Translations under genes and position numbers: made by a program
The notes under the pieces: model-generated
Seen by the model: only the letters and a program-made list of their open reading frames with translations
Databases searched by the model: none
Told to the model about the DNA's origin: nothing
In this document: positions 30,301-55,022 of the stretch, one piece after another
Position numbering within the stretch: the stretch's first letter is position 1
Layout: every line of letters begins with the position of its first letter
NCBI GenBank assembly: GCA_029561555.1
Contig: JAKQXH010000044.1
Span: 9,691-73,690, forward strand
Reading direction: 5' to 3'
DNA length: 64,000 nucleotides
Origin: Candidatus Omnitrophota bacterium
Lineage (GTDB): Bacteria > Omnitrophota > Omnitrophia > Omnitrophales > Omnitrophaceae

Positions 30301-31715
30301 TCAACGTTGGGAATCGATTAAATACCGGAGAATAATTCTGGCTTTTTTGGCGAAATCCGCCCGTGAAACGTAAAGGCGCATCATTTTGAGGGCGAAGAAT
30401 AATTCATAGACCGTTTTGAGAACAAAACGGGGCAGTGCGAATAAAGCTCTTCGAGCCGGAACCGCGGAATACAGAAAGGGGAAATTGACGAAAAGGGGGA
30501 AAAGACGCATGAGTTTTTGAATGGCTTTATTTTCCCTGGGGGACATTTCTAAAATGGATTGTGTGAAAAAATCGTCCGGGATTTTCTTTTCCGCATTGGG
30601 AACGTAATGTCCGTGAGCGATTGCATACTCGGTCAGCGCCAGGCCGGGAAAGGGGACGAAAATATTCGCGAGCCCCATGGACGGCTTGGCTTTGATATTC
30701 AGTTCCAGTGTCTTCAGCATTTGCCCGAAGCTTTCGCCGGGGAGCCCGATAATATTTCCGATCCGGTACCGGATTTTGTATTGGGTGAGCAATTCGGCTG
30801 TTTTGAAAATTTGCGAGTCCGACATTTGGCGTTTGAGGACCGTATTTCGCATGAATTCGTCTCCCGATTCGATGCTCCAGTTCACGACAATGCATCCGCT
30901 GTCGCGCAGGGCCCGGGCGATTTCCTCGTCGACCAGATTGGCCCGGATATTGCAGGTGTAGGGGAGTCCGATTTCTTTCGGGAAACGTTCGCAAAATTCA
31001 GGAACCATTTCTTGTCGATAATGAACGTGTCGTCGTTGAATACGACCGTCAGCAGGGGATATTTTCCCCGAACCAGCCGGATTTCGTCGAGAAGGTAGCC
31101 GACACTTTTTTTCCGTATTACGGATCCGCAAGTCTTGAAAATTTCCCGGAATTTGTGATTGAAACAATAGGTGCAGTCATAAGGGCATCCCCGGCCTGAC
31201 AGGAACTGTTTGGACGGCATATTCCGTAGAGTGGGATCCACGCGGTAGACGATGTCCCGGTCCGGAAAAGGCAGCCGGTCCAATTCGGCGAAAGGATGAA
31301 ATTCCGACGGGCCGGGGCTTCCTTTGGGAGCGATATTTTTACGGGACCTGAAACCGCTTTGGATGTAATCGAGAAGCGCGATTTCTCCTTCCCCGGCGCA
31401 GAAAGCGTCAATCGTGGAATCCTTGATGCAGTCCCAGTCGAAAGTGGGGCCCGGCCCTCCGATCAGAGAGTTGGCTTTCAGCGTTTGCTTGGCGATTTTA
31501 TCGAATTCCCTGAACGAGGGGACGGCAAAGGAAAAAGCGGAATACAAAAGCAGGTCCGGCGCGAGGCTCCGGATGGTCTGAAGCGCTTTTGCTTGACGGG
31601 GCCCCCGAACAAAATGGACTTCAATGCCGTTCTGCTTCAGGACGCTGGAGAGAGAATAAATCCCGTGGCGGTCGTAAAAATGGCTGAGGGAATCAAAAAA
31701 AACGACGGTGGTCAA
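30301..31715 (-). pseudogene. Cobalamin-binding radical SAM paralog 7, disrupted by a single -1 frameshift near 31003 (or an assembly error).
   Basis: ORFs 30882..31715 (N-terminal B12-like domain plus GRGCPYDCTYC) and 30301..31167 (radical-SAM C-terminal half) overlap in different frames. Together they align end-to-end with intact paralogs (...DKKW | PEFCERFPKEIGL...). Confidence 0.65.
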
Positions 31716-31736
31716 TATCGGGCTCCTTGCATGATG

Positions 31737-34157
31737 TTAATAATTTACCGGCACGTCCCTGACAAATTTATTGTAACCGGTTTTAGGGCGGAGGTAAATT
31801 CCCGAGAGGAGCCAGAGGATGCCGAAGAGCCAGAAGAGGGAATTGATTTCGAAAAAGGCGTACAGGGCGGATAATACGGGAGAGTGAAACGTAAAATGAA
31901 TAAGATTCGGACCTTTTGAAAGCGGGACGGCCTTGTAAGCGAGGTTGGCTTTGAATACGGTCACGGGTTTACCGTTTACAGTGGCTTTCCAGCGGGGATG
32001 CCAGGTGTCGCTGTAAAGCAGCCAGGCGGATTTCAGGTCCGGCGGCATATTGACGGCGAGATTCAGGCGGTTCGCGTCAAAAAACAGGATCCGGTAAGGT
32101 CCCGTCAGGCGGGCGTTGAGGGAAACCGGTTTTTCGGGAGCCCATTCAATGGTCCCCGGAATATTCTTCGGGCTTCGGCCCGGGCGATGCAGGAACGGGA
32201 TGTCGCCGTTATAGTCGGGACGGTTCATCTGAGCGGATGTCCATAAATCCTGCTCGGCAAAATAAATATCGGGGAAGACATACGCGGTTTCGAAGAATTG
32301 AATCTTGTCTTCCGTCAGCCCCGCTATTTTCCCGGAGGCGGGATGGGACAGCGGGAAATCGAGTTTTTTGAGTTCTTCAAAACCTGCCGGTGGAGTCGAA
32401 GTGTCGCGGAGGGACTGTCCCCAGTAAGTTTTCATGTATGAATCAAGCGGCAGGAGCCAGTGATCGGTCCGGTATGCATTGCCGATTTCATCCTGAAACG
32501 TGAAGGACTGAAGCGAGAAATAAGCCGCGCCATAGGAGACCCGTTTTTGGCAGAAGAAGGTGCGCAATTCGCCGGAATTCGGCGAGGCGATGCGCCGCGT
32601 CGCGTAAGGCATGGGCTGGAAAGCAGTGATTTTGGCTTCTTTTTGGTTAAGAGAGACGGTCCTGAGGCAGGTTTCCGAAAATTTGTATTCGCCCAGGTCC
32701 CAAAGATGGAGAGCCAGGGCTATAAAGAGAATGACCCGGGAATATTTTTTAAATTGAGGAGCCGCGCCCGAAATAACTAAAACGCCTGAAATGATCGCAA
32801 GAATAGCCGCGCTGACTGCCCGGGCGGTTATCACCCTGGGCAGGAAGGTCCAGGCGAATTTCGAAAGGCCGTTTGGAACAATAATGGCGAGAAGGACCCT
32901 GAGAGTTTCATGGTTTTTGAGAAGGATGAGGGCGTTGGCCGAAACGGCAAAGAGAACCGCTCCGACAAAGAAAAAGCGGAATTTGGATTTTTTGATTCTG
33001 TCCATAGCGGCGGCATGCGTGAACATCCCGTCCAGTCCCGCGCCCGCCAGGAGACAGAGAAAATATTTCGCGAAAAGAGTAACCAGCGAGAGATGCCGGA
33101 AGAATTTCATTCCGGGCCAGGCGTAATAAAAAAATACGGCCAGCGGCGTGCCCATGGCAAAGAGAGAGATTAAAACCGCCGCGAGGAGGAAATGGGCGTT
33201 TTTCCTGCGAAGCGTGAATAGTCCCAGCAGGGCGAGTGAGATCCCGAGAATTCCGATGTAGAGATTGTAGTCGACGCAGGGGGAAATTCTCAGAAACGAT
33301 TCCATCCAGCAGCCGGGGTTGAGCGTTCCTCCGTATTCGAGGAAATACTTTAAGGGAACGGTTCCGTCGGGATTTCGTCCGAGATAATATTTGGTCAGGA
33401 GGCCGGTTTCGGTCCGGAGCAAGAGCAGGACGGCGAACAATGAAAATAAAACAGCGGCAATAGCGGCAACGGAGGCCATGCTGAATTTAAGAGAAAAGAT
33501 CTTTTTGCGAATCTCACGGGGATTGCAAACGGTATAGGAGGAGAAATAGATAGCGATTACCAACGATAGGACGGGCGGATAGTAGGGTAGATTTGCGAGC
33601 ATTTGAACCGCAAATAAATTTCCCGCAAGAGCCAGATATCTCCATTGTCCCTGTTCGAGAAATCGATGGAGGAGGTCGAGCATGAGAGGCATTGCGTAGT
33701 AGAAATGAAAATTAAACCAGACCTGTCCCGCCCAAATGCAGGAACCCATGACGGACACGGCGGTGAAAAAAGCGGCAGCCGGCGAAAGGAATCTTCTCGC
33801 AAAGAGCCATGTTCCAACCAATAGCAGAAGTTCGTCAAAGAAAATCCCGGCATTGAAAATCTGAATAAAATTAATTCCTTTCAGGAGTGGGGTCGCCAGC
33901 AGCAGGACATTTTGCAGAATTCCGGCTTGAATGGCGTACCACCAGGTCGCGACCGTTCCGTGAGTCATGAAGGGCATCCATTGAGGGATTTCACCGTACA
34001 TGACGGCGTGATTCAGGAAGTAATACTGAAGGGTAAAGTATTCGAATGTGTCATGTCCGTTAGGGATACGGTTTTTAAAGTTCAGGAAAAGAATGAGACT
34101 GAATTCCAGGCAGAGGATTAAAAAGAAAAGAATGCGGTCGAGCCGGGCTGTTTTCAA
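31737..34157 (-). CDS. YfhO-family-like polytopic membrane protein (GT-C-like), paralog D.
   Basis: 806 aa. Many TM helices. C-terminal domain ending in WLLYSDTWHPRWKATVNGKPVTVFKANLAYKAVPLSKGPNLIHFTF plus a terminal TM helix. TTG start overlapping the stop of the upstream B12-rSAM (TTGA). Confidence 0.6.
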   Translation of the reverse strand: MKTARLDRILFFLILCLEFSLILFLNFKNRIPNGHDTFEYFTLQYYFLNHAVMYGEIPQWMPFMTHGTVATWWYAIQAGILQNVLLLATPLLKGINFIQIFNAGIFFDELLLLVGTWLFARRFLSPAAAFFTAVSVMGSCIWAGQVWFNFHFYYAMPLMLDLLHRFLEQGQWRYLALAGNLFAVQMLANLPYYPPVLSLVIAIYFSSYTVCNPREIRKKIFSLKFSMASVAAIAAVLFSLFAVLLLLRTETGLLTKYYLGRNPDGTVPLKYFLEYGGTLNPGCWMESFLRISPCVDYNLYIGILGISLALLGLFTLRRKNAHFLLAAVLISLFAMGTPLAVFFYYAWPGMKFFRHLSLVTLFAKYFLCLLAGAGLDGMFTHAAAMDRIKKSKFRFFFVGAVLFAVSANALILLKNHETLRVLLAIIVPNGLSKFAWTFLPRVITARAVSAAILAIISGVLVISGAAPQFKKYSRVILFIALALHLWDLGEYKFSETCLRTVSLNQKEAKITAFQPMPYATRRIASPNSGELRTFFCQKRVSYGAAYFSLQSFTFQDEIGNAYRTDHWLLPLDSYMKTYWGQSLRDTSTPPAGFEELKKLDFPLSHPASGKIAGLTEDKIQFFETAYVFPDIYFAEQDLWTSAQMNRPDYNGDIPFLHRPGRSPKNIPGTIEWAPEKPVSLNARLTGPYRILFFDANRLNLAVNMPPDLKSAWLLYSDTWHPRWKATVNGKPVTVFKANLAYKAVPLSKGPNLIHFTFHSPVLSALYAFFEINSLFWLFGILWLLSGIYLRPKTGYNKFVRDVPVNY

Positions 34158-35662
34158 GCGAATTTCCTCGTCAGGGTATGGGATGCCATTTCGCGAATGT
34201 GGGTTTCCGTTTCAGGGCCGAATTTTCTCCGGATCATCTCGAGGTATTCCGGGTTTTTGAAATAAGTCTGGAATGCCCGGTCGCGGAAGCGGACGACTTC
34301 AGCGCTTGAAAGATATTTCGTCGGAAGAGGCAGCATGTCTTCCGAATGCTGGGAGTATCCGCCCCAGGTTTTGGGAAGAGGCCAGCCTTCTTTCAGCGCT
34401 TGCCGGTACAGATCGGAGCCCGGATAGGCCATGGTGCAGTAAAAATTGGCGAATTCACAGTTTAATTCCGTTGCCAGGTCGAGCGTTTCCTGCATGGATC
34501 GGAGATCGTCTTCCGGCAGGCCGAAAATATAGTTTCCGATGACGTGAATTCCGGTCGCGTTTACTTCCCGCATGGCCTTGAAAATATCTTCCTGGACAAA
34601 TCCTTTTTGAACGTCGTCCCGCACCCGCGAACTGCCGGCTTCGATTCCGAACGCAAGCCAGTTCATGCCCGCGCGCTTCATTTTTTCGCACAATCCCTTC
34701 CGGAGCGTGTCGACGCGGGCGTACGCCCAAAGATTGAGATCGTATCCCCGTCCGATGATCAGGTCGCAAATCCCTTCGACATGCTTTTCGTTCAGCACAA
34801 ACATTTCATCGGCGATTTTGATGTTTCGGACGCCGTATCGGGAAACGAGAAGATCGATTTGCGTGATGACCCATTGCGGGCTCCAGTAACGGTAGGTGTT
34901 GACGTCCTCCCGGTTTCCGGAAAGCTTTTCTCCGCTTTTGAAAGGCGCGTGAATGCAGCAGAAACTGCAGCGGTAGGGACATCCCAACGTGGTGTAAAGG
35001 GCCGCGTAGGGTTCGCGTTTCAGATGACCGAAGCAATGCCAGTTGTGGGCGCGGTATCGGTTCATGGGGAGAAGGTCCCAAGCCATTGCCGGGATGCCTT
35101 CGTCCAAATTTTTTACGAGCGGCGCCGGGGGATTTGAGTCAATCACGCCGTTGTTGCGGTACCACAATCCCCGTACTTTACCGAGATCACCGGGACGGTC
35201 GGATTTGAGCGCTTCGATGAGATCCGTCAGTGTGTACAGGCATTCCCCGTCACAGACAAAATCCGCGTTTTCATCCCGAAGCGTTCTCTCGGGCAGCGCG
35301 GCGACGTGCCCGCCGGCGAGCAGAATTTTCATCTCCGGCGTTCTTTGTTTGATTGCCGAACAGGCGGCCGAGGCAGCCGGCATATTTTGAGTGGAAGCGG
35401 AAGGCTGATGACCGTAGACAATGACAGCGGCAAGCAGAGGATTGATTTCGGAGACCCGCCGGGCTGTTTCATCGGGGCCGAGCCCTTCGGCGTTTGCGTC
35501 TAGGATTTCGATTGAAAACCCCTTGTTTCGGGCAAATCCCGCCATGATCCCGATCCATACGGGGGGTTCTATGGCGGCGAGACTTCTTCCAAGGGTTTGA
35601 TAGACCTGTGACCGGTTTCCGGGATTGATCAGCAGGAGGTCCGGTTTTCGGGAAGAGGTCAT
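34154..35662 (-). CDS. Cobalamin-binding (class B) radical SAM protein, paralog 8.
   Basis: LLLINPGN... B12-like N-terminus. TLGCPYRCSFC motif. 502 aa. Confidence 0.8.
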   Translation of the reverse strand: MTSSRKPDLLLINPGNRSQVYQTLGRSLAAIEPPVWIGIMAGFARNKGFSIEILDANAEGLGPDETARRVSEINPLLAAVIVYGHQPSASTQNMPAASAACSAIKQRTPEMKILLAGGHVAALPERTLRDENADFVCDGECLYTLTDLIEALKSDRPGDLGKVRGLWYRNNGVIDSNPPAPLVKNLDEGIPAMAWDLLPMNRYRAHNWHCFGHLKREPYAALYTTLGCPYRCSFCCIHAPFKSGEKLSGNREDVNTYRYWSPQWVITQIDLLVSRYGVRNIKIADEMFVLNEKHVEGICDLIIGRGYDLNLWAYARVDTLRKGLCEKMKRAGMNWLAFGIEAGSSRVRDDVQKGFVQEDIFKAMREVNATGIHVIGNYIFGLPEDDLRSMQETLDLATELNCEFANFYCTMAYPGSDLYRQALKEGWPLPKTWGGYSQHSEDMLPLPTKYLSSAEVVRFRDRAFQTYFKNPEYLEMIRRKFGPETETHIREMASHTLTRKFA

Positions 35663-35666
35663 GGGC

Positions 35667-36383
35667 TTATTCCGGGGAGGAAGTTTTCCATTGGCTGTAG
35701 ATTTTCTGGAATTCCTTCAACCGTTCCGGCGTGCCGATATCGTAGAGTTTTTCCGGATTGACGTAGGCGTAAAATTCGTCCGGGCTGAGAGAAGGGAAAA
35801 GGTCTTTTTCGAAAGAAAAAGACCTTCCGGACGGGATTTGCTCCAATATCCGCCGGGTGAAAACATAAATACCCGCGTTCAAATAATTTCCCGGTTCTTT
35901 TTCGCAAAAGGAAAGGATCTGTCTGTCGAGGCCGATCTTGATGCTGCCTGCGTCGGTTCTCGAGCGGTCATCCGGCGTGACCACGGCGGTTGCCAGCACT
36001 TTGTTCTGTTCATGAAACTCCAGAAGGGAGTGATAATCGACCGGGCAGAACGAGTCTCCGTTTAGAACGAGGAAAAAAGGGTTTTTTAGAAAGGGTTCGC
36101 AATTTTTAACGGCTCCCGCGGTTCCGAGGGCTGTTTTCTCCCGGGAAAAATGCAAAGAGAGGCCTTTCCGCTTTTGAAAATATTGCTCAATGATTTCTCC
36201 CTTGTAGCCGGTCGCGAGGATGAATTTTTCGAAGCCGTAGGGGGCGATGCTGTTGATCAGAATTTCAAGGAACGGACTTTGCCCGATCGTGACCATGGGC
36301 TTCGGTATCTTGTCGGTGACGGGTTTGAGACGCTTCCCGATGCCTCCGCACAAGATAATAAGATCAACGTCTTGGGGCTCCAT
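35667..36383 (-). CDS. hddC: Sugar-1-phosphate nucleotidyltransferase, heptose-1-phosphate guanylyltransferase (HddC)-like.
   Basis: ILCGGIGKRLKP (GGxGxRL nucleotidyltransferase signature). 238 aa, short single-domain form. Immediately upstream of a GHMP kinase. Confidence 0.55.
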   Translation of the reverse strand: MEPQDVDLIILCGGIGKRLKPVTDKIPKPMVTIGQSPFLEILINSIAPYGFEKFILATGYKGEIIEQYFQKRKGLSLHFSREKTALGTAGAVKNCEPFLKNPFFLVLNGDSFCPVDYHSLLEFHEQNKVLATAVVTPDDRSRTDAGSIKIGLDRQILSFCEKEPGNYLNAGIYVFTRRILEQIPSGRSFSFEKDLFPSLSPDEFYAYVNPEKLYDIGTPERLKEFQKIYSQWKTSSPE

Positions 36384-36391
36384 GCCGGTTG

Positions 36392-37417
36392 TCAGAAAGT
36401 CCTTTCGCGCAGCAGACGGTCCGTTTTTCGCCGGTTGGGACGGTAAAAAACGATTTGGGAGCCGTTGCTTTCAAGCCGGAAGGGAACCGCAATGAGTTTT
36501 TTGAGCTTCTCGCGGATTTGTTTGTGGTTGTCCGGTTTTGCGAAAAAGAGAATAAATCCTCCTCCCCCGGCGCCGATCAATTTTCCTCCGATGGCGCCCG
36601 CATTGAGGCCTGCTTCGTAGATTTGATCGATTTCGGGAGTCGTCACCCCTTCGGCGAGGCTCCTTTTGAGCATCCAGGATTCATGGAGGAGTTTTCCGAA
36701 ATCCGAAAGATCGTTTCCTCCTCCTAAAATTCCCAGCCCCCGCTCGACCATCTGCCGCATGGAAGCAAGGTCTTCGTTTTTCTTTTCGATGTTTTCGATT
36801 TTTTTCTTGGCGATTTCGGATGCGGTGCGGGAGAACCCCGTGAAAAAGAGCATCAGATGATTTTGAAAATCCTCGAGACGCTCACCGTTCAGGATAACCG
36901 GCTCGACGGTAAAGGTTCCGTCCGGTTTGAAGTTGATTTTGTTCAAGCCTCCGAAGGCCGCCGCGACCTGATCCTGCGATCCGACATTTTCCTTCAGGAC
37001 ATCTCGCTCGATATGAATGGCGTCCAGCGCCAGCTGTTTTTTTGTGGGCATGATTTCCTTGAGCCCATACAGGGCGTGCAGGAGTCCGACGCTGAAAGAG
37101 GAACTGGATCCGGTACCGGTCCTGGCCGGAAGATCGCCGTCATGATGGATTTCAACGCCTTCTTCGATCCCCATGAATTTGAGCGCTTCCCGGACGGCCG
37201 GGTGCTGAATTTCATCCCTGGATTTCACCAGTTCTACTTTGGAATACACGATGCGGCTTTTGTGCTCAAAAAAGGGAGGCAGAAAACGGCACGAAAGATA
37301 GCAGTATTTATCGATGGTCGTCGAGAGGACGCACCCTCCGTGTTTTTCGTACCACGCGGGGTAGTCCGTCCCCCCGCCAAAAAAAGAAATTCGGTAAGGC
37401 GTGCGGCAGATAATCAT
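36392..37417 (-). CDS. hddA: GHMP-family sugar kinase, D-glycero-D-manno-heptose 7-phosphate kinase (HddA)-like.
   Basis: N-terminal RTPYRISFFGGGTDYP motif characteristic of HddA-type GHMP kinases. GHMP ATP-binding region GAGGGGF. 341 aa. Confidence 0.55.
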   Translation of the reverse strand: MIICRTPYRISFFGGGTDYPAWYEKHGGCVLSTTIDKYCYLSCRFLPPFFEHKSRIVYSKVELVKSRDEIQHPAVREALKFMGIEEGVEIHHDGDLPARTGTGSSSSFSVGLLHALYGLKEIMPTKKQLALDAIHIERDVLKENVGSQDQVAAAFGGLNKINFKPDGTFTVEPVILNGERLEDFQNHLMLFFTGFSRTASEIAKKKIENIEKKNEDLASMRQMVERGLGILGGGNDLSDFGKLLHESWMLKRSLAEGVTTPEIDQIYEAGLNAGAIGGKLIGAGGGGFILFFAKPDNHKQIREKLKKLIAVPFRLESNGSQIVFYRPNRRKTDRLLRERTF

Positions 37418-37435
37418 GAAAACCCCTCTTTCGGA

Positions 37436-38365
37436 TTAAAGTCCGGTCCCGCAGAAGCTATTGTGATTTTCAAGAAACCATTCTACGGTTTCTTCCAGCC
37501 CCTTTTCAAGCTTTGTGAATTTAAAACCCGGAAAGCGTTTTGGGAATAGGTTGCTTTTCAGGACTCTGACTCTCTGGCCTTCGGGTTTGCTTTTATCAAA
37601 ACGGATTTTTCCTTTGAATTTCATGGCTCCGGCGATTATTCCGGCAAGATCTCTGATTTTGATTCCGGAGTCCGGCGCCAGGATAACCGTGTCCGGGCTT
37701 TCGATGGATTGACCGGTTTTCAGGATCAACCGCGCGACATCGCCCGAGAAAACAAATTGCCGTACGGCCTCTCCGCTTCCCCAAACCACCAAGGTTTTTC
37801 CGCTTTGTTTGGCGTGAAAACATTTATGGATTAACGCGCTCAGGACGTGGCTATTTTCCAAATCCCAGTGGTCATGCGGCCCGTACATCGTGACGGGCGT
37901 GACGGTCGTGAAGCGGCAACCGTGCTGTTCCCAGAGCAAACGGGTCTGGATGTCCAGCATCCGTTTCGCGCAGCCGTATCCCAGATTCCCGGGGAACGGC
38001 AGGCCGGAATGGAGATCGGTTTCCCGGGTCGGACGCCCGGAGTAAAAAGGGAACGCGCAACTTGAAAGAAGGGACACCAAGCCTTTGACTTTGTGCTTTT
38101 GGGCGGAGGCGAGAACATTGGTGTTGATTTGAATGTTGTCCGCGAAAAAATCCGCGTTCCTTTCGGCGTTGATTTTGACTCCGCCGACTTTTGCCGCAAG
38201 ATGCAGGACCCGGTCCGGCTTTTTATCGCCAAAGATGCGGTCAGTCTGTTTGGCGTCCCGAAGGTCTCCGTTTTGACTCGTCAGAAACGTCGCGCCCGGA
38301 ACAATTTTCCGTACCGCGTGCCCCAGGAGTCCGCTCCCTCCGGTTACGAGGATTTTTTCCTGCAT
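37436..38365 (-). CDS. GDP-L-fucose synthase-like NDP-sugar 3,5-epimerase/4-reductase (Fcl/ColC family).
   Basis: ILVTGGSGLLG...LAAKVGG...LLSSCAFP...YGCAK pattern parallels Fcl (LAAKVGG / GSSCIYP / YxxxK). Start chosen at MQEKILVTGG (38365); the ORF-track extension to 38725 is non-coding-like. Confidence 0.6.
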   Translation of the reverse strand: MQEKILVTGGSGLLGHAVRKIVPGATFLTSQNGDLRDAKQTDRIFGDKKPDRVLHLAAKVGGVKINAERNADFFADNIQINTNVLASAQKHKVKGLVSLLSSCAFPFYSGRPTRETDLHSGLPFPGNLGYGCAKRMLDIQTRLLWEQHGCRFTTVTPVTMYGPHDHWDLENSHVLSALIHKCFHAKQSGKTLVVWGSGEAVRQFVFSGDVARLILKTGQSIESPDTVILAPDSGIKIRDLAGIIAGAMKFKGKIRFDKSKPEGQRVRVLKSNLFPKRFPGFKFTKLEKGLEETVEWFLENHNSFCGTGL

Positions 38366-39528
38366 GAAGCCTCCAGTACGATTTTTGAGATGAAATCCAC
38401 CCCTTGGGCGTCGAGGGCGGGATTGTTGGGAAGAAAGATGCCGCATTGATAAAGCTGATCCGCAACGGGGAAATCGGGCTTTCCGTAGCGGTTGAACCAG
38501 AACGGGTGGCGTCCGAGATTGCCGGCCGTGAAAAGACGCGTTTCGATTCCGTTTTTGGTCAATGCGGCGGCCAGGGAGTGACGTTCGACCGAATTTTTGG
38601 CCAGCATGCAGAAGGAAATGCTGGAGAGCGTGGCATCCGGGTCTTTGCATTGCTGAATGCGAAATCTTTCTCCCAGATGCTTTTGATAACGCAAATGATT
38701 GGCGTGGCGCCTGGAAATCATCCATTCGAGTTTCTCAAGCTGCCGGAGTCCAAGGAAAGCATTCAGGTCCGTCGATCTTAAGTTGAGGCCGGGTTCGTAA
38801 AAGACGAAAGGCTTGTGATCGTCGTTCACGCGGTATTTTTTGACCAGTTTCTGATGGGAGACCGGATCCAGGTCTTTGCTCCAGCCGTGGCTTCTGAGCA
38901 TCAGGAGAAGATCCCGGAAGAGGGGATTGTCCGTGGAAACCATTCCGCCTTCGATTGTGGACATCTGATGCCCGAAATAGAAAGAGAAGCTGGACATGTC
39001 GCCGAAGGTGCCGATTTTTCTTCCGAAAAAGGTGGACCCGATGGAGGCACAGGCGTCTTCAAGCAGGATGAATCTGTATTTTTTCTTGAGTGCCATCACG
39101 GCGTTCATTTTATGCGGGATGCCGAGCACCTGGACCATTGTGACGGCCGAGGGCTCATGTTTTTTAAGGAGTTTTTCGAGATGATCCAGATTTAACCCGA
39201 ATGTGTCCGGATCGGATTCGCAGAGAATCGGCTCGAAACCGAATTGAATGGCCGGCGCAATCGTGGTTACCCATCCGGTGGCCGGGACGATTACTTTTTT
39301 GTTCTTCAGTTTTCCGGAAAGGAGAAGGGCATAATACATCAGCAGGTTGGCCGAAGATCCCGAATTGCAGAACGCGGAAAACTTCCGTCCGATCCATCGG
39401 CTCCATTGATTTTCAAAGAGAACGTTCAACTTGTCCTTGGTCAGTCGGGGAGTCCCTTTCAGCCATTCGATCAGGCGGTCAATGTCTTTTTGGTCGATGG
39501 TGTCTTCCGCGAGATGAAATCGAAGCAT
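38344..39528 (-). CDS. DegT/DnrJ/EryC1/StrS-family PLP/PMP-dependent enzyme with His at the canonical lysine position (ColD/E1-like sugar 3-dehydratase candidate).
   Basis: SGSSANLL...DACASIG...SFSFYFGHQMSTIEGG aligns with the SFHxxKxxxxxEGG aminotransferase motif, with H replacing K. Start chosen at MLRFHLAED (39528). Confidence 0.6.
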   Translation of the reverse strand: MLRFHLAEDTIDQKDIDRLIEWLKGTPRLTKDKLNVLFENQWSRWIGRKFSAFCNSGSSANLLMYYALLLSGKLKNKKVIVPATGWVTTIAPAIQFGFEPILCESDPDTFGLNLDHLEKLLKKHEPSAVTMVQVLGIPHKMNAVMALKKKYRFILLEDACASIGSTFFGRKIGTFGDMSSFSFYFGHQMSTIEGGMVSTDNPLFRDLLLMLRSHGWSKDLDPVSHQKLVKKYRVNDDHKPFVFYEPGLNLRSTDLNAFLGLRQLEKLEWMISRRHANHLRYQKHLGERFRIQQCKDPDATLSSISFCMLAKNSVERHSLAAALTKNGIETRLFTAGNLGRHPFWFNRYGKPDFPVADQLYQCGIFLPNNPALDAQGVDFISKIVLEASCRKKSS

Positions 39529-39556
39529 TGCAAACCCTCCGTTATCTGATTGTGAT

Positions 39557-40591
39557 CTAAAACGGTCCTTTGAATTTTGTCGTGAGCAAAGGGACTTCTT
39601 TCTCCGCGGGAAAGTTCCGGCCCAGCATTTCACACACGGCTTGCGCGATCGTTTTCGCATTGGGATAGAAAATGTTCTCGAGCGGTTTGCTGACCGGGCA
39701 AACGACGGGCGCCATTCCCATCCGCCGGACGGGTGCTTTGAGACTTTTAAACCCTTTTTCCGCGGCAAGGGCGGCGATCTCGGCGCTTGCGCCGCAGGCC
39801 GTCCAGCTCGTATCGATCACAAGCAGGCGCCCCGTTTTTTCGATTGACTTCAAAATAACGCTCTCTTCCAGAGGAACCAGCGTGACCGGATCAATGATTT
39901 CGACGTCGATCCCTTCTCCGGCCAGAAATTCCGCGGCCTTCAAGCTCTCGACGACCATGTAGGAATTCGCGACGATCGTAATGTCTTTCCCCTCACGCCT
40001 GATGTTTGCCTTCTTCAGAGGAATTTCATAATAACCGTCGGGCACTTCGCCCGGGATGTCGTAAAGCAGGCGGTGTTCGATGACGGCGACCGGATTTGGG
40101 TCCGCGATGGCGGCGAGCAGAAGACCTTTCGCATCATAGGCGGTTGTGGGCATGACGACTTTCAGACCGGGGACATGCATGAGAAGCGACTGGGGGCTTT
40201 GCGAGTGCTGGGAACCCTGCCCCCAGCTCCGGCCGATTACGGCGCGGATCACGATCGGGACGCTCATCTGGCCGCCGAACATGTAACGCCATTTGGCGGC
40301 GATGTTGAAGAGTTGGTCCAGCGCGAGATAAAGAAAATCGCAGCGGATATGGATGTGGACGGGTCTCATCCCCGCCAGCGCGGCGCCGATGGCCACGCCG
40401 GTCATCGCGGCTTCCGAAAGCGGGGTGTCGAAAACTCTTTCGCGGCCGAAACGGTCGACCAGGTTCTTAGTGCTGCCGAATACCGCCTTGTGATCGTCGA
40501 CCCCGATTCCCATGATCAAGACGGAAGGATCCCTCTCCATCGCCGCCGTCAGGGCATCTAGGATGGCTTGTCCGTAATTACGCAGACTCAT
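39557..40591 (-). CDS. Thiamine-diphosphate-dependent dehydrogenase E1 beta subunit / transketolase C-terminal-like.
   Basis: Pyrimidine-binding and C-terminal transketolase-like domains (VFDTPLSEAAMTGVAIGAALAG...). ATGA overlap with the E1 alpha gene. Confidence 0.7.
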   Translation of the reverse strand: MSLRNYGQAILDALTAAMERDPSVLIMGIGVDDHKAVFGSTKNLVDRFGRERVFDTPLSEAAMTGVAIGAALAGMRPVHIHIRCDFLYLALDQLFNIAAKWRYMFGGQMSVPIVIRAVIGRSWGQGSQHSQSPQSLLMHVPGLKVVMPTTAYDAKGLLLAAIADPNPVAVIEHRLLYDIPGEVPDGYYEIPLKKANIRREGKDITIVANSYMVVESLKAAEFLAGEGIDVEIIDPVTLVPLEESVILKSIEKTGRLLVIDTSWTACGASAEIAALAAEKGFKSLKAPVRRMGMAPVVCPVSKPLENIFYPNAKTIAQAVCEMLGRNFPAEKEVPLLTTKFKGPF

Positions 40592-41580
40592 TTCGGCTCC
40601 TCGAACAGATCTTCATACAGGCATTCCGGAGCGGGGAAAGGACTTTGTTCGGCGAAAGAAACGGCATCTTCGATCTCTTCCGAGATTTCTTTTTCCCATT
40701 CCGAAAATTGAAGATCGGATATCGAAAAGTGCTTCCGCAGAAATTCTTCCGAACGCGCAAGAGGGTCCCGCTGAATGGCCTGCCGGAGTTTTTCCGGTTC
40801 CCGGTAGGCCTCGGCATGGTCTTTGCCGATTCCCACGTGTTCGTAAATTCGGTAAGTCATGTATTCAAGAAGGACCGGCGCGGGATTTTCTTTTATGCGG
40901 GAAACGGCTTCTTTCATGGTTGAGTAAACTTCGGAAACATTGTTTCCGTCGAAGCGGCAGCCTTGAACGCCCAGGCCTTCCCCGAGGCGGTAGAGTTCTT
41001 TCTGCGTGTGACGGTCTGAGACACGGGAGTGGACGGCGTAGTTGTTGTTTTCGCAGACGTAAATAATCGGAAGCTTCTTGAGGACCGCAAAATTCATGCT
41101 TTCGAAAAACACGCCTTCGTCTACCGCGCCGTCGCCGAAGAAGGCCACCGCAACGCGGTCTTCTTTTTTGATTTTGGCCGCAAGCGCGTCGCCCGTTGCG
41201 ACGGGAATGGTGCTTGCGACGATGGCGGAGCAGCCCATCAGACCGGTTTCCGGTGCGGCCAAATGCATGGAGCCGCCCTTGCCCCGGGAGCAGCCGGTAT
41301 TTTTGGCGTAGAGTTCGGCAAACAACTTTTTAAGGTCACCGCCCCTGCCGATGTAAATGCCGTGTCCCCGGTAGGTGCCGTAGAGGTGGTCGGCGGGACT
41401 GAGCGCGAGGGAGACTCCCGCGGAAACGGCTTCCTGCCCGACGGACAAATGAATCGGGCTTTGGATTTTATCGCTCGGATAAATTTCGGCTACTTTCAGT
41501 TCGGCCAGCCGGATTTTGAGCATGGTCCGGTGAAGCGCGATGCTGATGTTCCGGTCGGGTTTCTGATTTCTAGTCGGCAT
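40588..41580 (-). CDS. Thiamine-diphosphate-dependent dehydrogenase E1 alpha subunit.
   Basis: TPP-binding motif GDGAVDEGVFFESMNFA...ENNNYA (GDG-x-N). Similar to pyruvate/acetoin dehydrogenase E1 alpha. Confidence 0.7.
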   Translation of the reverse strand: MPTRNQKPDRNISIALHRTMLKIRLAELKVAEIYPSDKIQSPIHLSVGQEAVSAGVSLALSPADHLYGTYRGHGIYIGRGGDLKKLFAELYAKNTGCSRGKGGSMHLAAPETGLMGCSAIVASTIPVATGDALAAKIKKEDRVAVAFFGDGAVDEGVFFESMNFAVLKKLPIIYVCENNNYAVHSRVSDRHTQKELYRLGEGLGVQGCRFDGNNVSEVYSTMKEAVSRIKENPAPVLLEYMTYRIYEHVGIGKDHAEAYREPEKLRQAIQRDPLARSEEFLRKHFSISDLQFSEWEKEISEEIEDAVSFAEQSPFPAPECLYEDLFEEPK

Positions 41581-41633
41581 AAGTAGTTTTGGTTCCGGAT
41601 TTTACCATACGGCAAAGATTCGGCATATTTTTA

Positions 41634-42569
41634 TCAAACGTTCGCGTATTGAGTCCGTTTGATGATGCGGTAGCACTTGAGCAATTCCTGAATGCCGGCA
41701 TCCAGGGAAACATCGGGTCTGAACCCGGATTTTTCGATTTTTTCGTTGCTGACGATATAATTTCTCTGGTCGGGGTCTTTGCCGACTTCGGAGGCGGTGA
41801 TGGCGAAATGGGGGACGTGTTTTTTGATCGCTTCGCAAAGCTGACGCTTCGAAAGATTGCAGTCGCTGAGTCCCACGTTGTAAGTTTCCCCCTTCATTTT
41901 CTCGAAGGAATTCATTCCGTGCAGAAAGGCTTTTGCGACGTCCCGGACGTGGATGTAATTCCGGATGAAATCGGCTTCGAAAAGGACGACGAATCCGTCG
42001 AATACGGCCCGGTACACGAAATCATTCACCAGGAGATCCAGTCGCATCCGGGGACTGACGCCGAATGCCGTCGCAAGCCGGAACGTAATGCTCTCGCCCG
42101 AATCGAGAATCATTTTCTCGGCTTCGACCTTGAGGCGGCCGTATAGCGAAATTGGGTTCAAAGGTGTTTTCTCGTCGCAGGCAATACCGGTTTGTCCGAT
42201 GCCGTAACCGCTGTTGGTGGTCGGGTAAATAATTCTCTGATGCCTGCCGCGCATTTTGAGCAATTCTTTGACGGAATCAACGATGACTCCCCGGGCGGTG
42301 CAGGGGTCTTTCGAGCAAAGCGGTGCGCCGGTCAGACAGGCCAGCGGGAAAAGATAATCCGCGTCCTTGACGAGCTTTTCCATCAGCTTTGCGTTGCGGA
42401 CATCCCCGCGGACGACCTGGAACCGGGGATTCGCGCAACAGTCGAGCAGGGAAGCCTGCCGGAACATGAAATTGTCGACGACGGTGACTTCGTGATTTTC
42501 CCGAAGCAGTAAAGGAACGAGGACGGAACCGATATAGCCCGCGCCTCCGGTGACCAGTATTTTTGCCAT
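41634..42569 (-). CDS. NAD-dependent NDP-sugar epimerase/dehydratase (extended SDR; RmlB/GalE-like).
   Basis: MAKILVTGGAGYIGSVLV Rossmann motif. YGRLK (YxxxK) catalytic dyad. Confidence 0.7.
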   Translation of the reverse strand: MAKILVTGGAGYIGSVLVPLLLRENHEVTVVDNFMFRQASLLDCCANPRFQVVRGDVRNAKLMEKLVKDADYLFPLACLTGAPLCSKDPCTARGVIVDSVKELLKMRGRHQRIIYPTTNSGYGIGQTGIACDEKTPLNPISLYGRLKVEAEKMILDSGESITFRLATAFGVSPRMRLDLLVNDFVYRAVFDGFVVLFEADFIRNYIHVRDVAKAFLHGMNSFEKMKGETYNVGLSDCNLSKRQLCEAIKKHVPHFAITASEVGKDPDQRNYIVSNEKIEKSGFRPDVSLDAGIQELLKCYRIIKRTQYANV

Positions 42570-42665
42570 TTTTGATCAACTCCTTTTGATGATTGATGTC
42601 TTGAATATCGGCATTTTGCGAAAAATTATTTCAGCGCGGATTTTTATCGTGAAATCCGGTCCTCA

Positions 42666-42721
42666 AAATTTAGTGCCAACAAAATAGTTCCCTGAAAAAT
42701 CGGAAATAATAGGAGGCTCCC
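42666..42721. repeat. Direct repeat, copy 1 (~56 bp): an orphan duplicate of the 3' end of the GT2 gene at 42831..43562.
   Basis: AAATT(T/C)AGTGCCAACAAAATAGTTCCCTGAAAAAT(C/T)GGAAATAATAGGAGGCTCC found twice, 160 bp apart, with 54 of 56 positions identical. Confidence 0.8.
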
Positions 42722-42825
42722 TCAATGAGCATCGAACTTACGCGACTACAAGGAGCGTCAAGTTCGCCATGCGAATTGATCCCAGCAAGGCGCGGCCAAG
42801 CGGCTTGCGTGGGACTTTCATTTGC

Positions 42826-42881
42826 TAAATTCAGTGCCAACAAAATAGTTCCCTGAAAAATTGGAAATAATAGGAGGCTCC
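42826..42881. repeat. Direct repeat, copy 2 (~56 bp); encodes the last ~16 codons and stop of the GT2 gene at 42831..43562.
   Basis: Same sequence as copy 1; overlaps the GT2 C-terminus (...GASYYFQFFRELFCWH*). Confidence 0.8.
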
Positions 42882-43562
42882 CCACTTGAATATCTTCAGC
42901 TTCCTCACCCCGCCGATTCTCGGAGGTTCGTCTCCCGGGATTTCACCGATGCGGAGTTTCCGCTTCAGCGCCCGGACCGAAAGCAGGGGTTCCCAGCTGA
43001 CTTTCGTCCGGAAAAGTCTTTCGGCCGTCGAGTAGCCTTCGTCTTTGTTTAATTCAAGATCATAAATCAGGCGGGTTTTATAGGCCCGGTAGATGACCAT
43101 GGCGTCCGTGTAATGTCCCTTGTAAAGGAGATTGATCGTATTCGTGAACAGCCGGTTCCCGAATGCCGTCACCGGGTCGTCGTCTTCGCTTTTGGCCCCT
43201 TCAAGGTAGCGGGACACAATGACCATGTCATAACCTTCCTTCATTTTGGCGATCAGGGGCGGGATGAGTTCGGGGATGGAATTCCCGTCGGGACTGAACG
43301 TGATGACGACATCGCCTTCGATGTAGGGGAGGACTTCGTTATATCCCTGCCGGAATCCCGGTTTTTGCTGAACATAGACAAAATACCCGTTTTCCCTGGC
43401 GTATTCAATGGTCCCGTCGGTGGATCCTCCGTCGAGAATGATAATCTGCTCGCACCATTCTTTCCTGACTTTCGGCATAATTGCTTTCATGCCGTCGATT
43501 TCGTTGAGAGTCGGAACCAGTAATGTTGTTTTCATCCGTATCCAATCGCTTTTGATTAGCAA
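42831..43562 (-). CDS. GT2 glycosyltransferase (dolichyl/polyprenyl-phosphate glycosyltransferase-like, soluble form).
   Basis: LLVPTLNE...ILDGGSTDGT...ITFSPDG motifs of the GT-A fold. 243 aa. First gene of the long minus-strand gene array. Confidence 0.65.
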   Translation of the reverse strand: MLIKSDWIRMKTTLLVPTLNEIDGMKAIMPKVRKEWCEQIIILDGGSTDGTIEYARENGYFVYVQQKPGFRQGYNEVLPYIEGDVVITFSPDGNSIPELIPPLIAKMKEGYDMVIVSRYLEGAKSEDDDPVTAFGNRLFTNTINLLYKGHYTDAMVIYRAYKTRLIYDLELNKDEGYSTAERLFRTKVSWEPLLSVRALKRKLRIGEIPGDEPPRIGGVRKLKIFKWGASYYFQFFRELFCWH

Positions 43563-43735
43563 ACGATAGCAATTTGAATTAGTTTACCCCGACTTTGCGG
43601 TTTTCGGCAGTACTTTTTTGCTGAGGGGAGTTCTCGGGAAATTTTTCCCGCCTCGCGCGAGGGCCGATTCGAGAGGTCGGTAAGTATTCCTACAGAAAGC
43701 AAGGGAAGCGCCGTAAATTTTGACAGGAGAAAACC
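43563..43735. promoter_or_regulatory. Divergent intergenic control region between the long minus-strand accessory operon and the plus-strand accessory operon.
   Basis: 173-bp non-coding gap between divergently oriented first genes. No specific -35/-10 could be assigned with confidence. Confidence 0.35.
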
Positions 43736-44047
43736 ATGTATAAGAAGTGTATCTTGACGGGGTTATTGCTGCTGTTTTTTTTGTCGACGACTCCGTCTCC
43801 GGCCGTTGCCGACGACGCGGAAAATATCGCGGGCTTTACCAGCGGTTTTTCCCGGGTCCTGACCAGCGCTTTTCAACTGCCTCTTAAGCTGGTCAACGAT
43901 ACTTTCACGCAGCCTTTTCCTCTCGGAGTGCTTTACGGTGTTATCGACGGGACCGTCAGCACGGTGACCAATTTGGTCGGAGGGACTTTTGAAATGGCCG
44001 CGGCAGCCGCGCCTTACGCGAAATACGCCTGGATTGCCGCATTGTAA
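43736..44047 (+). CDS. Small secreted hypothetical protein (103 aa) with an N-terminal signal peptide.
   Basis: MYKKCILTGLLLLFFLSTTPSPAVA|DD: a classic n-h-c signal peptide. GGAG RBS 8 nt upstream. Confidence 0.5.
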   Translation: MYKKCILTGLLLLFFLSTTPSPAVADDAENIAGFTSGFSRVLTSAFQLPLKLVNDTFTQPFPLGVLYGVIDGTVSTVTNLVGGTFEMAAAAAPYAKYAWIAAL

Positions 44048-44104
44048 TTTCGCCTTTAAATTTGATTTTTGCCCCGGATGAATTCGGAGCTATAATTCAC
44101 CTTC

Positions 44105-44971
44105 ATGATGCGGATATTCGAGTACCAGACGGAATTTTTCCCGGAAGATCCTGTCCCGACGGAATGGTCCGCTTGCCGGGTGTTGAAGCAGACCCCTTTG
44201 GAAAATCCGGTAAATTATTTGGCCGCGCCGTGGGCGGTGCTGATGAACAAAGGGAAATTGGAGTCCGCTTCGAAAATGCGGATCGGGGGAGGGTTTACGG
44301 TTTGTCAGCATTCGAGATATTACGAACTGATTCCTTTATTGAAAACAATCGGGGTCGACACCCTGTTTTGCCCGCATGTTTCCGAAAAGGGAACGGACGG
44401 CATCCGCCTTTTTCCGTTTCCCCATTACGCCGTCAACGGAACCGCTCCGGGGAAAATCAAGGATTTGTTTTACGCTTTCGTCGGGATTGACAGTACGACG
44501 CCGGGAGGATCGGAGTTGAGGCGGAAAATATTTTTGATGAGCCATCCGCCCGGAACGGTTGTGATCGAGCGGAAGCGGTGGCACTGGCTGCGCGAAAACG
44601 GATGGGGGGATTTCCCGGAAGAGGAACAGATTCGGGAAAGGCGGGAGTATCGGGACCTGCTCTCCCGGTCGGAATTTTCTCTCTGCCCCCGCGGATTCGG
44701 CGCCGGCACGGTGAGATTTTGGGAGTCGCTCGCGGCCGGGGCGGTGCCGGTTCTTCTGTCGGATTTTTTAAAATTGCCGGAAGGCGTCGATTGGGAGCAG
44801 TGCATTGTGCGGATTCCGGAGGAAGAGGTGTCGCGTGTGCCGGAAATCCTTTCCGGGATTTCCAAGCCTCGGCGCGCGGAGATGAGCCGGAACTGCCGGG
44901 GAATTTATGCGCGGTTTTCAGGCGAAAATTTTGTGAGTGCCATCCGGGCTGTCTATCGTGAAACTTTTTAG
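44105..44971 (+). CDS. Exostosin-like (GT47-type) glycosyltransferase domain protein.
   Basis: C-terminal region FSLCPRGFGAGTVRFWESLAAGAVPVLLSD resembles the exostosin-family motif (F.L.P.G...R..E.L..G.IPV). Confidence 0.45.
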   Translation: MMRIFEYQTEFFPEDPVPTEWSACRVLKQTPLENPVNYLAAPWAVLMNKGKLESASKMRIGGGFTVCQHSRYYELIPLLKTIGVDTLFCPHVSEKGTDGIRLFPFPHYAVNGTAPGKIKDLFYAFVGIDSTTPGGSELRRKIFLMSHPPGTVVIERKRWHWLRENGWGDFPEEEQIRERREYRDLLSRSEFSLCPRGFGAGTVRFWESLAAGAVPVLLSDFLKLPEGVDWEQCIVRIPEEEVSRVPEILSGISKPRRAEMSRNCRGIYARFSGENFVSAIRAVYRETF

Positions 44972-54197: not shown

Positions 54198-55022
54198 TTG
54201 GAGAATTCAGCGGTTAGACAGGTTCGCGCGGGTTCGGTCGTGGCGGGGGGGAAGGACCTGTTTTTGATCGCGGGCCCTTGCGTGATCGAAGATGAAAAAT
54301 CCGTGTTTCGCCATGCGGGAAAAATCGTCCGTATCGCGGAAAAACTCAGGATGCCGTATATTTTCAAAGCGAGTTTTGATAAGGCAAACCGTTCTTCCGC
54401 GAAATCTTTCCGGGGCCCCGGACTCGAACAGGGGCTTGAGATCCTGTCGAAAGTGAAACGGGAATTCGGCGTTCCCGTTCTGAGCGATGTGCATTGCGTG
54501 AGCCAGGCGGAAGCGGCGGGTACAGTTTTGGATGTGATTCAGATCCCCGCTTTTTTGTGCCGGCAGACGGATTTGCTTGTGGCGGCCGCTCAAACGGGCA
54601 AGACGGTGAACGTGAAGAAGGGACAATTCATGGCCCCCTGGGACATGAAGAATGCGGTTGAAAAGATCGAAAAAGCGGGAAATAGGAATATTCTTCTTAC
54701 GGAACGGGGGGTTTCTTTCGGGTACAATACGCTGGTGAGCGATTTTCGCGCGATCCCGGTTTTGCGGGGGCTGGGCTATCCGGTGATATTTGACGCCACT
54801 CATTCGGTTCAGAGACCCGGAGGTCTGGGACAGGTTTCCGGCGGGGACCGCGAATTCATCCCGCTGCTGGCCCGGTGCGGAGTGGCGGCTGGATGCGACG
54901 GAATATTTCTTGAAGTTCATGAAAATCCTTCCCGTGCCAAGAGCGACGGGCCGAATTCAGTTCCGCTCCGGGAGCTCGAGGGACTGCTTAGAAACTTGCT
55001 GCGATTGCGCCGGGCGCTTTGA
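54198..55022 (+). CDS. kdsA: 3-deoxy-8-phosphooctulonate (Kdo-8-P) synthase.
   Basis: LFLIAGPCVIEDE...KASFDKANRSS, the typical DAHP/KDO8P synthase family pattern. 274 aa. Confidence 0.85.
   Translation: MENSAVRQVRAGSVVAGGKDLFLIAGPCVIEDEKSVFRHAGKIVRIAEKLRMPYIFKASFDKANRSSAKSFRGPGLEQGLEILSKVKREFGVPVLSDVHCVSQAEAAGTVLDVIQIPAFLCRQTDLLVAAAQTGKTVNVKKGQFMAPWDMKNAVEKIEKAGNRNILLTERGVSFGYNTLVSDFRAIPVLRGLGYPVIFDATHSVQRPGGLGQVSGGDREFIPLLARCGVAAGCDGIFLEVHENPSRAKSDGPNSVPLRELEGLLRNLLRLRRAL

Follow-up and report, generated by a model that had tools for sequence, protein, structure and literature searches.

A probable ColD-type sugar 3-dehydratase of Candidatus Omnitrophota, encoded in a putative operon for a GDP-3-deoxy, C4-branched heptose

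Sugar 3-dehydratases of the DegT fold are a textbook enzyme class, defined by histidine in place of the Schiff-base lysine of the aminotransferases (PMC8987622). Two described members are closest to the protein treated here. ColD (WbdK of Escherichia coli O55, PDB 2GMS) has the DegT fold and the histidine, lacks an iron-sulfur motif and belongs to a GDP-sugar context with an Fcl/ColC-like neighbour. E1 (AscC/DdhC/RfbH, CDP-6-deoxy-L-threo-D-glycero-4-hexulose 3-dehydrase, PDB 3BCX) has histidine at the same position and belongs to a CDP-sugar context with a 4,6-dehydratase and an E3 reductase. E1 and SpnQ bind a [2Fe-2S] cluster; ColD does not (PMC8987622). A gene of this class lies at 38344..39528 in a 64,000-nt stretch of Candidatus Omnitrophota DNA (assembly GCA_029561555.1, contig JAKQXH010000044.1, positions 9,691 to 73,690; the whole stretch is called the window). 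Its product, the His enzyme, is very probably a sugar-deoxygenating enzyme of this known kind, a nucleotide-sugar 3-dehydratase of the ColD/E1 class predicted to remove the C3 oxygen of a nucleoside diphosphate-4-keto sugar. The new element is the gene neighbourhood, read here as an operon for a GDP-3-deoxy, C4-branched heptose in which the His enzyme is the ColD-type 3-dehydratase. This reading as a whole is judged slightly likelier right than wrong.

Several described pathways contain parts of such an operon. In the colitose pathway and in that of Campylobacter jejuni HS:5 the partner of the 3-dehydratase is a GDP-mannose or GDP-heptose 4,6-dehydratase. The C. jejuni capsular heptose set comprises HddA, HddC, Cj1427 and Cj1428, and all four of these families are represented in a single operon of the window. 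Cj1427 is a GDP-heptose C4-dehydrogenase that re-oxidises its tightly bound NADH with 2-oxoglutarate (PMC10680097). Cj1427 and a C3-dehydratase are not naturally combined in C. jejuni; brought together in vitro, Cj1427 and a ColD-type C3-dehydratase gave GDP-D-glycero-3-deoxy-4-keto-heptose, and the products were described as novel (PMC10680097). The same paper reports the [M-H]- ion of GDP-3-deoxy-4-keto-heptose at m/z 616.08. The term '3-deoxy-heptose' was not met in the literature searched beyond that paper. Acyl branching of sugars is known or proposed for three kinds of thiamine diphosphate (ThDP) enzyme, namely YerE-like decarboxylases, alpha/beta 'alpha-KADH2' enzymes and split transketolases (PMC12247030). 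The acceptor in the scheme for yersiniose, erwiniose and caryophyllose is a 3-deoxy-4-keto sugar (PMC9306805, PMC4753412). Branching by the alpha/beta E1 type has so far been described for actinomycete antibiotics (AviB1/B2, Pau11/12, KbDH; PMC4753412, PMC12247030).

The His enzyme has 394 aa (ColD, 390 aa), opens with MLRFHLAEDT and starts at an ATG (39528) with GGAGGG ahead. A first-pass annotation of the window had placed the gene correctly; it is on the minus strand. Pfam PF01041 (DegT_DnrJ_EryC1) matches residues 11–381 at 8e-65, indicating the DegT/aspartate-aminotransferase fold, and the top ten Foldseek matches of the AlphaFold model (pLDDT 86) are all ColD entries (TM 0.84). Residues 180–195 (nt 38944–38991, minus strand) form the motif SFSFYFGHQMSTIEGG, within which His187 is encoded by CAT (38968–38970, minus strand). 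By four independent alignments His187 occupies the catalytic position, in agreement with the first-pass annotation. In the phmmer alignments with PDB sequences it stands opposite H188 of ColD (the name used in the entry titles), where wild-type 2gms has H, 3b8x has N, and both 2r0t and 3gr9 have K, and opposite the first His of 'YPAHH' in E1 (His220). In the MAFFT alignment one column holds the His of the query, ColD and E1 and the Lys of ArnB (Lys188) and WecE (Lys181). In BLASTP against E. coli ArnB, FSFYFGH pairs with FSFHAIK. No lysine is present in residues 172–200.

G186-H187-Q188 and S190–G195 are invariant across the family. All 32 family members (64–87% identity) keep the equivalent of His187. 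Among 116 full-length proteins representing 50%-identity clusters, which reach down to about 31% identity, 111 have it; the clade surrounding the protein is one of histidine carriers. Neither of the two outcomes that would have overturned the first-pass reading, a lysine at the catalytic position or a place among true aminotransferases, was thus seen. A 100% identical protein is found on three public contigs. Given this invariance, the spread among distant representatives and the identical copies, His187 is neither a sequencing artefact nor a chance substitution.

Assignment as a 3-dehydratase rather than an aminotransferase is likewise upheld by the PDB search, in which ColD (2e-45) and E1 (8e-36) rank above ArnB (5e-27) and PseC. 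Aminotransferase equivalogs of NCBIfam score far under their cut-offs (PseC 185/423, LegC 122/420, ArnB 97/631, WecE 80/375). The iron-sulfur segment of E1, 'dCyCapgCdntC', faces the cysteine-free stretch GWSKDLDPVSHQK in the phmmer alignment; the only invariant cysteines of the family are C103 and C160. The annotated window yielded no gene of the E3 (ferredoxin-reductase) type. Since the iron-sulfur cysteines of E1 are absent, the His enzyme is assigned to the ColD-type, iron-sulfur-free group. It shares with ColD, its top match in both sequence and structure, the motifs GS(S/T)ANLL, LLED-C, HGW and N-x-R, and like ColD it stands in a GDP-sugar context, not the CDP context of E1, beside an Fcl/ColC-like gene. 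The residue ahead of the catalytic histidine differs, being Gly186 in the His enzyme and Ser187 in ColD.

The first-pass term 'ColD/E1-type' holds for the class, with ColD as the subtype, and does not extend to orthology. Identity to ColD is only 29–31%; the C3-dehydratase of C. jejuni HS:5 is 62–67% identical to ColD. In a neighbour-joining tree, built from BLOSUM distances without bootstrap and suited to coarse placement only, the ColD clade (10 representatives) and E1 fall outside the clade of the His enzyme. The best NCBIfam match, the RfbH equivalog NF011936, reaches 203 bits against a cut-off of 423. The low identity, the separate clade and the sub-cut-off score together rule out orthology with ColD or E1. 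As a contrast of gene context, P0253 from the ColD clade was left out, only 3 kb being available. The NCBI name of the identical protein in a Candidatus Omnitrophota metagenome-assembled genome (MAG) is 'DegT/DnrJ/EryC1/StrS family aminotransferase'; the JGI name of homologues is 'CDP-6-deoxy-D-xylo-4-hexulose-3-dehydrase', the lysine-to-histidine marker already allowing some pipelines to use '3-dehydrase'.

Some dehydratases of the wider His clade are naturally fused to other enzymes. P0210 carries Gmd as its N-terminal part (50% identity to the E. coli protein), P0250 carries Fcl (41% identity to that of E. coli) and P0123 a family 2 glycosyltransferase (GT2). These fusions give Rosetta-stone support for GDP-sugar pathways. 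In four relatives at 35–45% identity (P0134, P0151, P0187, P0262) the catalytic histidine is followed, three residues on, by an intein that contains a LAGLIDADG homing endonuclease, for example 'SFSFMFAHHMS|CSPDTPIPY' in P0262.

The partner enzyme, a short-chain dehydrogenase/reductase (SDR) encoded at 41634–42569, is a homologue of Cj1427. It matches PDB 6vo6/6vo8 at 8.6e-112, with 54% identity over 308 aa without gaps; its model superposes on both at TM 0.94, and the next PDB match is about 20 orders of magnitude weaker. The two entries are identified as Cj1427 by their titles, the 6vo6 sequence maps to C. jejuni, and 6vo8 holds GDP-D-glycero-D-mannoheptose. Catalytic positions that read S-T-D-E in the 4,6-dehydratase RffG and S-T-S-E in Gmd read T-N-S in Cj1427 and in the window SDR. 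The SDR is predicted to be a C4-dehydrogenase that makes the 4-keto substrate and keeps O6. That C4 oxidation followed by C3 deoxygenation is feasible follows from the in vitro result with the C. jejuni enzymes. No GDP-mannose 4,6-dehydratase (GMD)-like gene was found in the window. The product is therefore probably neither colitose nor a 3,6-dideoxy-heptose, and the 'colitose-like' sugar of the first-pass annotation, which requires a 4,6-dehydratase, is unlikely at this locus.

A second SDR gene, 27304–28299 (minus strand), was considered as a 4,6-dehydratase and ruled out; its product is similar to HpnA, a sugar epimerase associated with hopanoids, and scores 229 bits (cut-off 368). The radical S-adenosylmethionine (SAM) enzyme of the cassette is nearest to HpnJ, and no squalene-hopene cyclase gene is present in the window.

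Directly upstream of the His-enzyme gene, at 39557–41580, are the genes of a ThDP enzyme of the E1 alpha/beta type, which the first-pass annotation had missed. The alpha subunit has an intact GDG-x26-NN ThDP motif and scores 306 bits against the NCBIfam pyruvate dehydrogenase model (cut-off 394); no E2 or E3 genes are present in the window. Relatives of the locus were collected by a pattern scan of GTDB species representatives, which gave 80 loci encoding a homologue 62–69% identical to the His enzyme. These are from Nitrospira (30, including the complete genome of Ca. N. defluvii), Elusimicrobia (19), Candidate Phyla Radiation (CPR)/Patescibacteria (14), Deltaproteobacteria, Omnitrophota, KSB1, Binatia and a Nanoarchaeota bin. 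Partner genes were counted by tblastn with the window proteins in 85 loci (Table 1), ThDP enzymes in 81 non-redundant loci. The Cj1427-like SDR is the most constant partner.

A ThDP enzyme is encoded in 71/81 loci and in 47 of the 49 loci of at least 19 kb. Three architectures occur: E1 alpha/beta (38), YerE/acetolactate synthase (ALS)-like (21) and split transketolase (12), the latter two in loci without E1 alpha/beta. The type tracks lineage, with E1 alpha/beta in 16/19 Elusimicrobia, YerE-like enzymes in 19/30 Nitrospira and split transketolases in 7/14 CPR loci. A more distant relative (52% identical to the His enzyme) likewise adjoins a split transketolase and a B12-binding radical SAM gene. 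Comparative genomics thus ties the ThDP enzyme to the His enzyme, from which a C-branched sugar is inferred. The logic is that of yersiniose, in which a 3-deoxy-4-keto product is branched at C4 by the ThDP enzyme YerE and then reduced by YerF (PMC9306805). The predicted branching enzyme of the window is of the alpha/beta E1 type, unlike YerE; the Nitrospira relatives have a YerE/ALS-like enzyme. Linkage to a ThDP enzyme and a B12-binding radical SAM enzyme is not a feature of the colitose or HS:5 pathways (PMC8987622, PMC10440746), nor do the C. jejuni pathways in PMC10680097 and PMC10440746 contain either enzyme.

In Ca. Nitrospira defluvii (L055; FP929003.1, 2259735–2280895, with the His-enzyme gene at about 2,269,735–2,270,895) the cassette is a tight operon in the order His enzyme, Cj1427-like SDR, kinase, nucleotidyltransferase, class I/II aminotransferase, B12-binding radical SAM enzyme, YerE/ALS-like enzyme, second B12-binding radical SAM enzyme. 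The Nitrospira cassette is downstream of genes for FliW, PilZ/YcgR, HD-GYP and a hybrid histidine kinase (flagellar and cyclic di-GMP functions), a neighbourhood that suggests flagellin glycosylation. In the Nanoarchaeota MAG (L084, JAUYPG010000004.1) a 62%-identical copy stands with a Cj1427-like SDR, E1 alpha/beta, a kinase and a GMD-like gene; it is the result of either inter-domain transfer or mis-binning.

Homologies, the position of His187, the missing iron-sulfur motif, gene order and co-occurrence across phyla are observed; the route proposed for the operon is read from sequence and gene context as to catalytic activities, sugar, order of steps and acceptor. The HddA-like kinase and the HddC-like guanylyltransferase would form a GDP-sugar, most likely from D-glycero-D-manno-heptose. 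The Cj1427-like SDR would oxidise C4 with retention of O6. The His enzyme in its pyridoxamine 5'-phosphate (PMP) form would then make a ketimine with the 4-keto sugar; His187, as general acid/base, would abstract the C4' proton, and O3 would leave. Hydrolysis of the ketimine would yield the 3-deoxy-4-ketone (GDP-3-deoxy-4-keto-heptose), pyridoxal 5'-phosphate and ammonia, and glutamate would regenerate PMP, giving 2-oxoglutarate. This mechanism is taken from described PMP dehydratases (PMC10440746, PMC8987622). As 2-oxoglutarate is the co-substrate of Cj1427-type enzymes, dehydratase and dehydrogenase could be metabolically coupled. The E1 alpha/beta enzyme would place a two-carbon acyl anion, probably from pyruvate, on the C4 ketone to form a C4-branched tertiary alcohol, as in yersiniose. 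The Fcl-like SDR would epimerise and reduce, and the B12-binding radical SAM enzyme would tailor the product. The GT2 enzyme and the large membrane protein would deliver or export the sugar to an acceptor in the envelope.

Heptose is moderately favoured as the scaffold sugar because three independent components, the Cj1427-like SDR, the kinase and the nucleotidyltransferase, are nearest to solved heptose enzymes. The closest PDB entries of the kinase are the heptose kinases 3k85, 4usk and 4n3o (6e-35 to 2e-29); that of the nucleotidyltransferase is HddC (5xhw/6jq8, '6-deoxy-D-mannoheptose pathway protein', 1.4e-32). A heptose substrate had already been suggested in the first-pass annotation, which had correctly recognised Fcl-like, HddA-like and HddC-like neighbours; the suggestion is plausible and gains its better support from the gapless SDR homology. 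About 10 of the 81 loci, among them several from CPR bacteria and Elusimicrobia, encode homologues of GmhA (40–44% identical to E. coli GmhA) or GmhB (33–39%) no more than 10 kb from the gene. In three loci of Deltaproteobacteria a GmhA-like SIS protein is accompanied by a fructose-6-phosphate-aldolase-like gene. Erwiniose, caryophyllose and gastriose are made from CDP-3,6-dideoxy-4-keto-glucose with longer 2-oxoacids (PMC9306805); on that evidence an erwiniose-like product, a heptose extended by methylation, was dropped.

Several observations weigh against the GDP-3-deoxy, C4-branched heptose. Neither GmhA nor GmhB has a copy in the window, so that heptose supply would have to be encoded elsewhere, or the sugar may be a hexose. 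The only SIS protein of the window (55051–56019) was ruled out as GmhA; it is of the KdsD type with CBS domains. Kinase, nucleotidyltransferase, Fcl-like and E1 alpha/beta proteins all score under the NCBIfam equivalog cut-offs. The Fcl-like enzyme keeps the residues of an epimerase/4-reductase and would therefore compete with the ThDP enzyme for the C4 ketone, which would make a two-product pathway possible. About 15 related loci also hold a true GMD-like 4,6-dehydratase, and a 6-deoxy substrate is possible there. Co-occurrence gives linkage and not the order of reactions.

The alternative that survives best places the same chemistry (C4 oxidation, C3 dehydration, ThDP branching) on a hexose such as GDP-mannose, or on another sugar. 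Absence of GmhA and GmhB from the window and from most related loci is in its favour, as are the scores of the kinase (HddA, 136 bits, cut-off 600) and of the nucleotidyltransferase (HddC 125/300), whose best NCBIfam match is mannose-1-phosphate guanylyltransferase (ManC-type, 148/440). It is nevertheless considered unlikely, though with appreciable weight, as the nearest solved relatives of three components are Cj1427 (6vo8 with GDP-heptose), heptose kinases and HddC, and several loci of CPR bacteria and Elusimicrobia have GmhA/GmhB homologues next to the cassette.

A pathway to a GDP-colitose-like sugar or a GDP-3,6-dideoxy-heptose, with the His enzyme as a ColD orthologue acting after a 4,6-dehydratase and before an Fcl/ColC-like epimerase-reductase, is improbable. 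Overlap of the Fcl-like gene with the dehydratase gene and retention of the Fcl catalytic residues agree with it, as do the GMD-like genes of the roughly 15 related loci and the Gmd and Fcl fusions of the wider clade. The pathway itself is real: 3,6-dideoxy-heptoses, called unusual in the first-pass annotation, are indeed rare but are not new, having been characterised in C. jejuni HS:5 and HS:11 (PMC10440746). The window, however, has no 4,6-dehydratase, and the partner is a Cj1427 homologue with T-N-S; identity to ColD is low and the clade separate; and the near-universal ThDP enzyme and B12-binding radical SAM enzyme would be left without explanation.

A low probability is given to a pathway in which SDR, His enzyme and Fcl-like reductase yield an unbranched 3-deoxy-heptose and the ThDP and radical SAM enzymes serve another step or product. 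The Fcl-like enzyme, present in 58/85 loci, could reduce the 4-ketone directly, and GDP-3-deoxy-heptoses have been made in vitro with C4-reductases by Raushel's group (PMC10680097). Against this, three unrelated ThDP architectures replace one another beside the gene in 71/81 loci, which is hard to explain unless the same pathway needs them.

An ordinary sugar aminotransferase, or an iron-sulfur dehydratase of the E1 type in need of an E3 reductase, is extremely improbable: the public name, the RfbH match and the side aminotransferase activity of SpnQ (PMC8987622) point that way, but no lysine is at or near the catalytic position, the aminotransferase and RfbH scores are far below or under cut-off, the four-cysteine motif is absent and no E3-like gene was found in the window.

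Beyond the window, the GDP-3-deoxy, C4-branched heptose operon can be tentatively seen as one copy of a horizontally spread cassette for a GDP-3-deoxy-4-C-acyl-branched heptose, an undescribed class of sugar, with a C4-dehydrogenase start, 2-oxoglutarate passing from dehydratase to dehydrogenase and three interchangeable ThDP families; this wider proposal is possible, though short of probable. At 62–69% protein identity the cassette is shared by CPR, Elusimicrobia, Nitrospira, Omnitrophota, Deltaproteobacteria, KSB1 and a Nanoarchaeota bin. The operon would represent a natural 3-deoxygenation route opening with C4 oxidation and not with the 4,6-dehydration said to open all deoxysugar pathways, coupled with ThDP-dependent branching and with radical SAM chemistry of the cobalamin kind, and conserved in Nitrospira and in numerous uncultivated phyla. 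If the reading is true, it would add a new surface-sugar family in organisms of whose envelopes next to nothing is known, correct a widespread 'aminotransferase' annotation, and supply new carboligases and deoxygenases for glyco-engineering.

The His-enzyme gene is the fifth of ten tightly packed minus-strand genes (43562–31737; Table 1). Intergenic gaps are -22 to +53 nt from the SDR through the membrane protein; the GT2 gene is 261 nt upstream of the SDR gene. The same gene order recurs in two loci of other lineages (L009, L071). The stop of E1 alpha overlaps the start of E1 beta by 4 nt, and E1 beta ends 28 nt upstream of the His-enzyme gene. The Fcl-like gene begins with ATG after GGAGG and overlaps the 3' end of the His-enzyme gene by 22 nt. 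Its product scores 193 bits against NCBIfam GDP-L-fucose synthase (cut-off 500), matches human GDP-fucose synthase in the PDB at 1.6e-71 and retains the equivalents of Fcl Ser107, Cys109, Tyr136, Lys140 and His179. True GDP-fucose synthases are closer to it than are the PDB entries 7anh, 7m13 and 7anc, which rank lower. These three 'GDP-L-fucose synthase' entries are presumably the C. jejuni heptose C4-reductases. The GT2 protein stays below cut-off with both NCBIfam models that it matches, AglJ at 80 bits and dolichyl-phosphate hexose transferase at 55 bits. Relatives of the B12-binding radical SAM enzyme are weak (HpnJ 165/578; AprD4, 6fd2, 7e-12); C-methylation or radical tailoring of the sugar may be its role. 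The start of the membrane-protein gene overlaps the radical SAM stop by 4 nt, and the membrane protein is not conserved in related loci. Scans for promoters and terminators (31000–44300) scored as many hits in shuffled controls as in the real sequence and were not informative, and base composition revealed no island around the operon.

Table 1. Genes of the operon in order of transcription, with the number of related loci that encode a homologue
Product	Coordinates in the window	Strand	Basis	Related loci
GT2 polyprenyl-phosphate glycosyltransferase-like protein (AglJ/DPM-like), first gene of the block	42831..43562	-	Pfam Glycos_transf_2	22/85
Cj1427-like SDR, predicted GDP-heptose C4-dehydrogenase	41634..42569	-	PDB 6vo6/6vo8 8.6e-112	83/85; median distance ~1 kb from the His-enzyme gene
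ThDP enzyme, E1 alpha-like subunit, predicted C-branching carboligase	40588..41580	-	Pfam E1_dh 7e-68	38/85 (alpha/beta)
ThDP enzyme, E1 beta-like subunit	39557..40591	-	Pfam Transket_pyr + Transketolase_C	38/85 (alpha/beta)
His enzyme, DegT-fold PMP/PLP (pyridoxal 5'-phosphate) enzyme, His187 for Schiff-base Lys; predicted ColD-type nucleotide-sugar 3-dehydratase	38344..39528	-	Pfam, PDB, His alignments, model	
Fcl/ColC-like SDR, predicted epimerase/4-reductase or branch-ketone reductase	37436..38365	-	NCBIfam, PDB, catalytic residues	58/85
GHMP sugar kinase, HddA-like	36392..37417	-	PDB heptose kinases; NCBIfam HddA	65/85
Sugar-1-phosphate nucleotidyltransferase, HddC/ManC-like, probably guanylyltransferase	35667..36383	-	PDB 5xhw/6jq8	55/85
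B12-binding radical SAM enzyme	34154..35662	-	Pfam B12-binding + Radical_SAM; CxxxCxxC at residue 228	59/85
806-aa membrane protein, candidate GT-C-type transferase for the finished sugar	31737..34157	-	Pfam YfhO 1.8e-5, below cut-off	

Elsewhere in the window, a conserved lipopolysaccharide/3-deoxy-D-manno-octulosonate and nitrogen-phosphotransferase block (54198–63116, plus strand) contains kdsA, kdsD (SIS + CBS), an lpxL-like acyltransferase gene, a gene for an LptC-LptA-like protein, lptB, hpf, ptsN, a CofD/YvcK-like gene and ptsI; between lptB and hpf no rpoN was recognised. The density of radical SAM genes is unusual, with about 13 in 45 kb (5026–47647), interleaved with GT2 glycosyltransferase genes. 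B12-binding members are at 5026–6510 (plus strand) and at 12380–13834, 17066–18514, 20621–22192, 22196–23620, 25790–27307 and 34154–35662 (minus strand). Plain members are at 11191–12360, 23689–24720 and 24743–25780 (minus strand), a radical SAM-SPASM gene is at 18525–19586 (minus strand) and a MiaB-like gene at 46448–47647 (plus strand). Two overlapping open reading frames (ORFs) in different frames at 30301–31715 (minus strand), a B12-binding part (30882–31715) and a C-terminal radical SAM half (30301–31167), look like one frameshift-broken gene of this kind, a pseudogene or an assembly error. Two very large ORFs of 1172 and 969 aa (43–3561 and 14105–17014, plus strand) have no Pfam match. 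Two large membrane ORFs in 6552–11080 (minus strand) overlap (6552–9038 and 8723–11080, the latter weakly YfhO-like) and may be one split gene.

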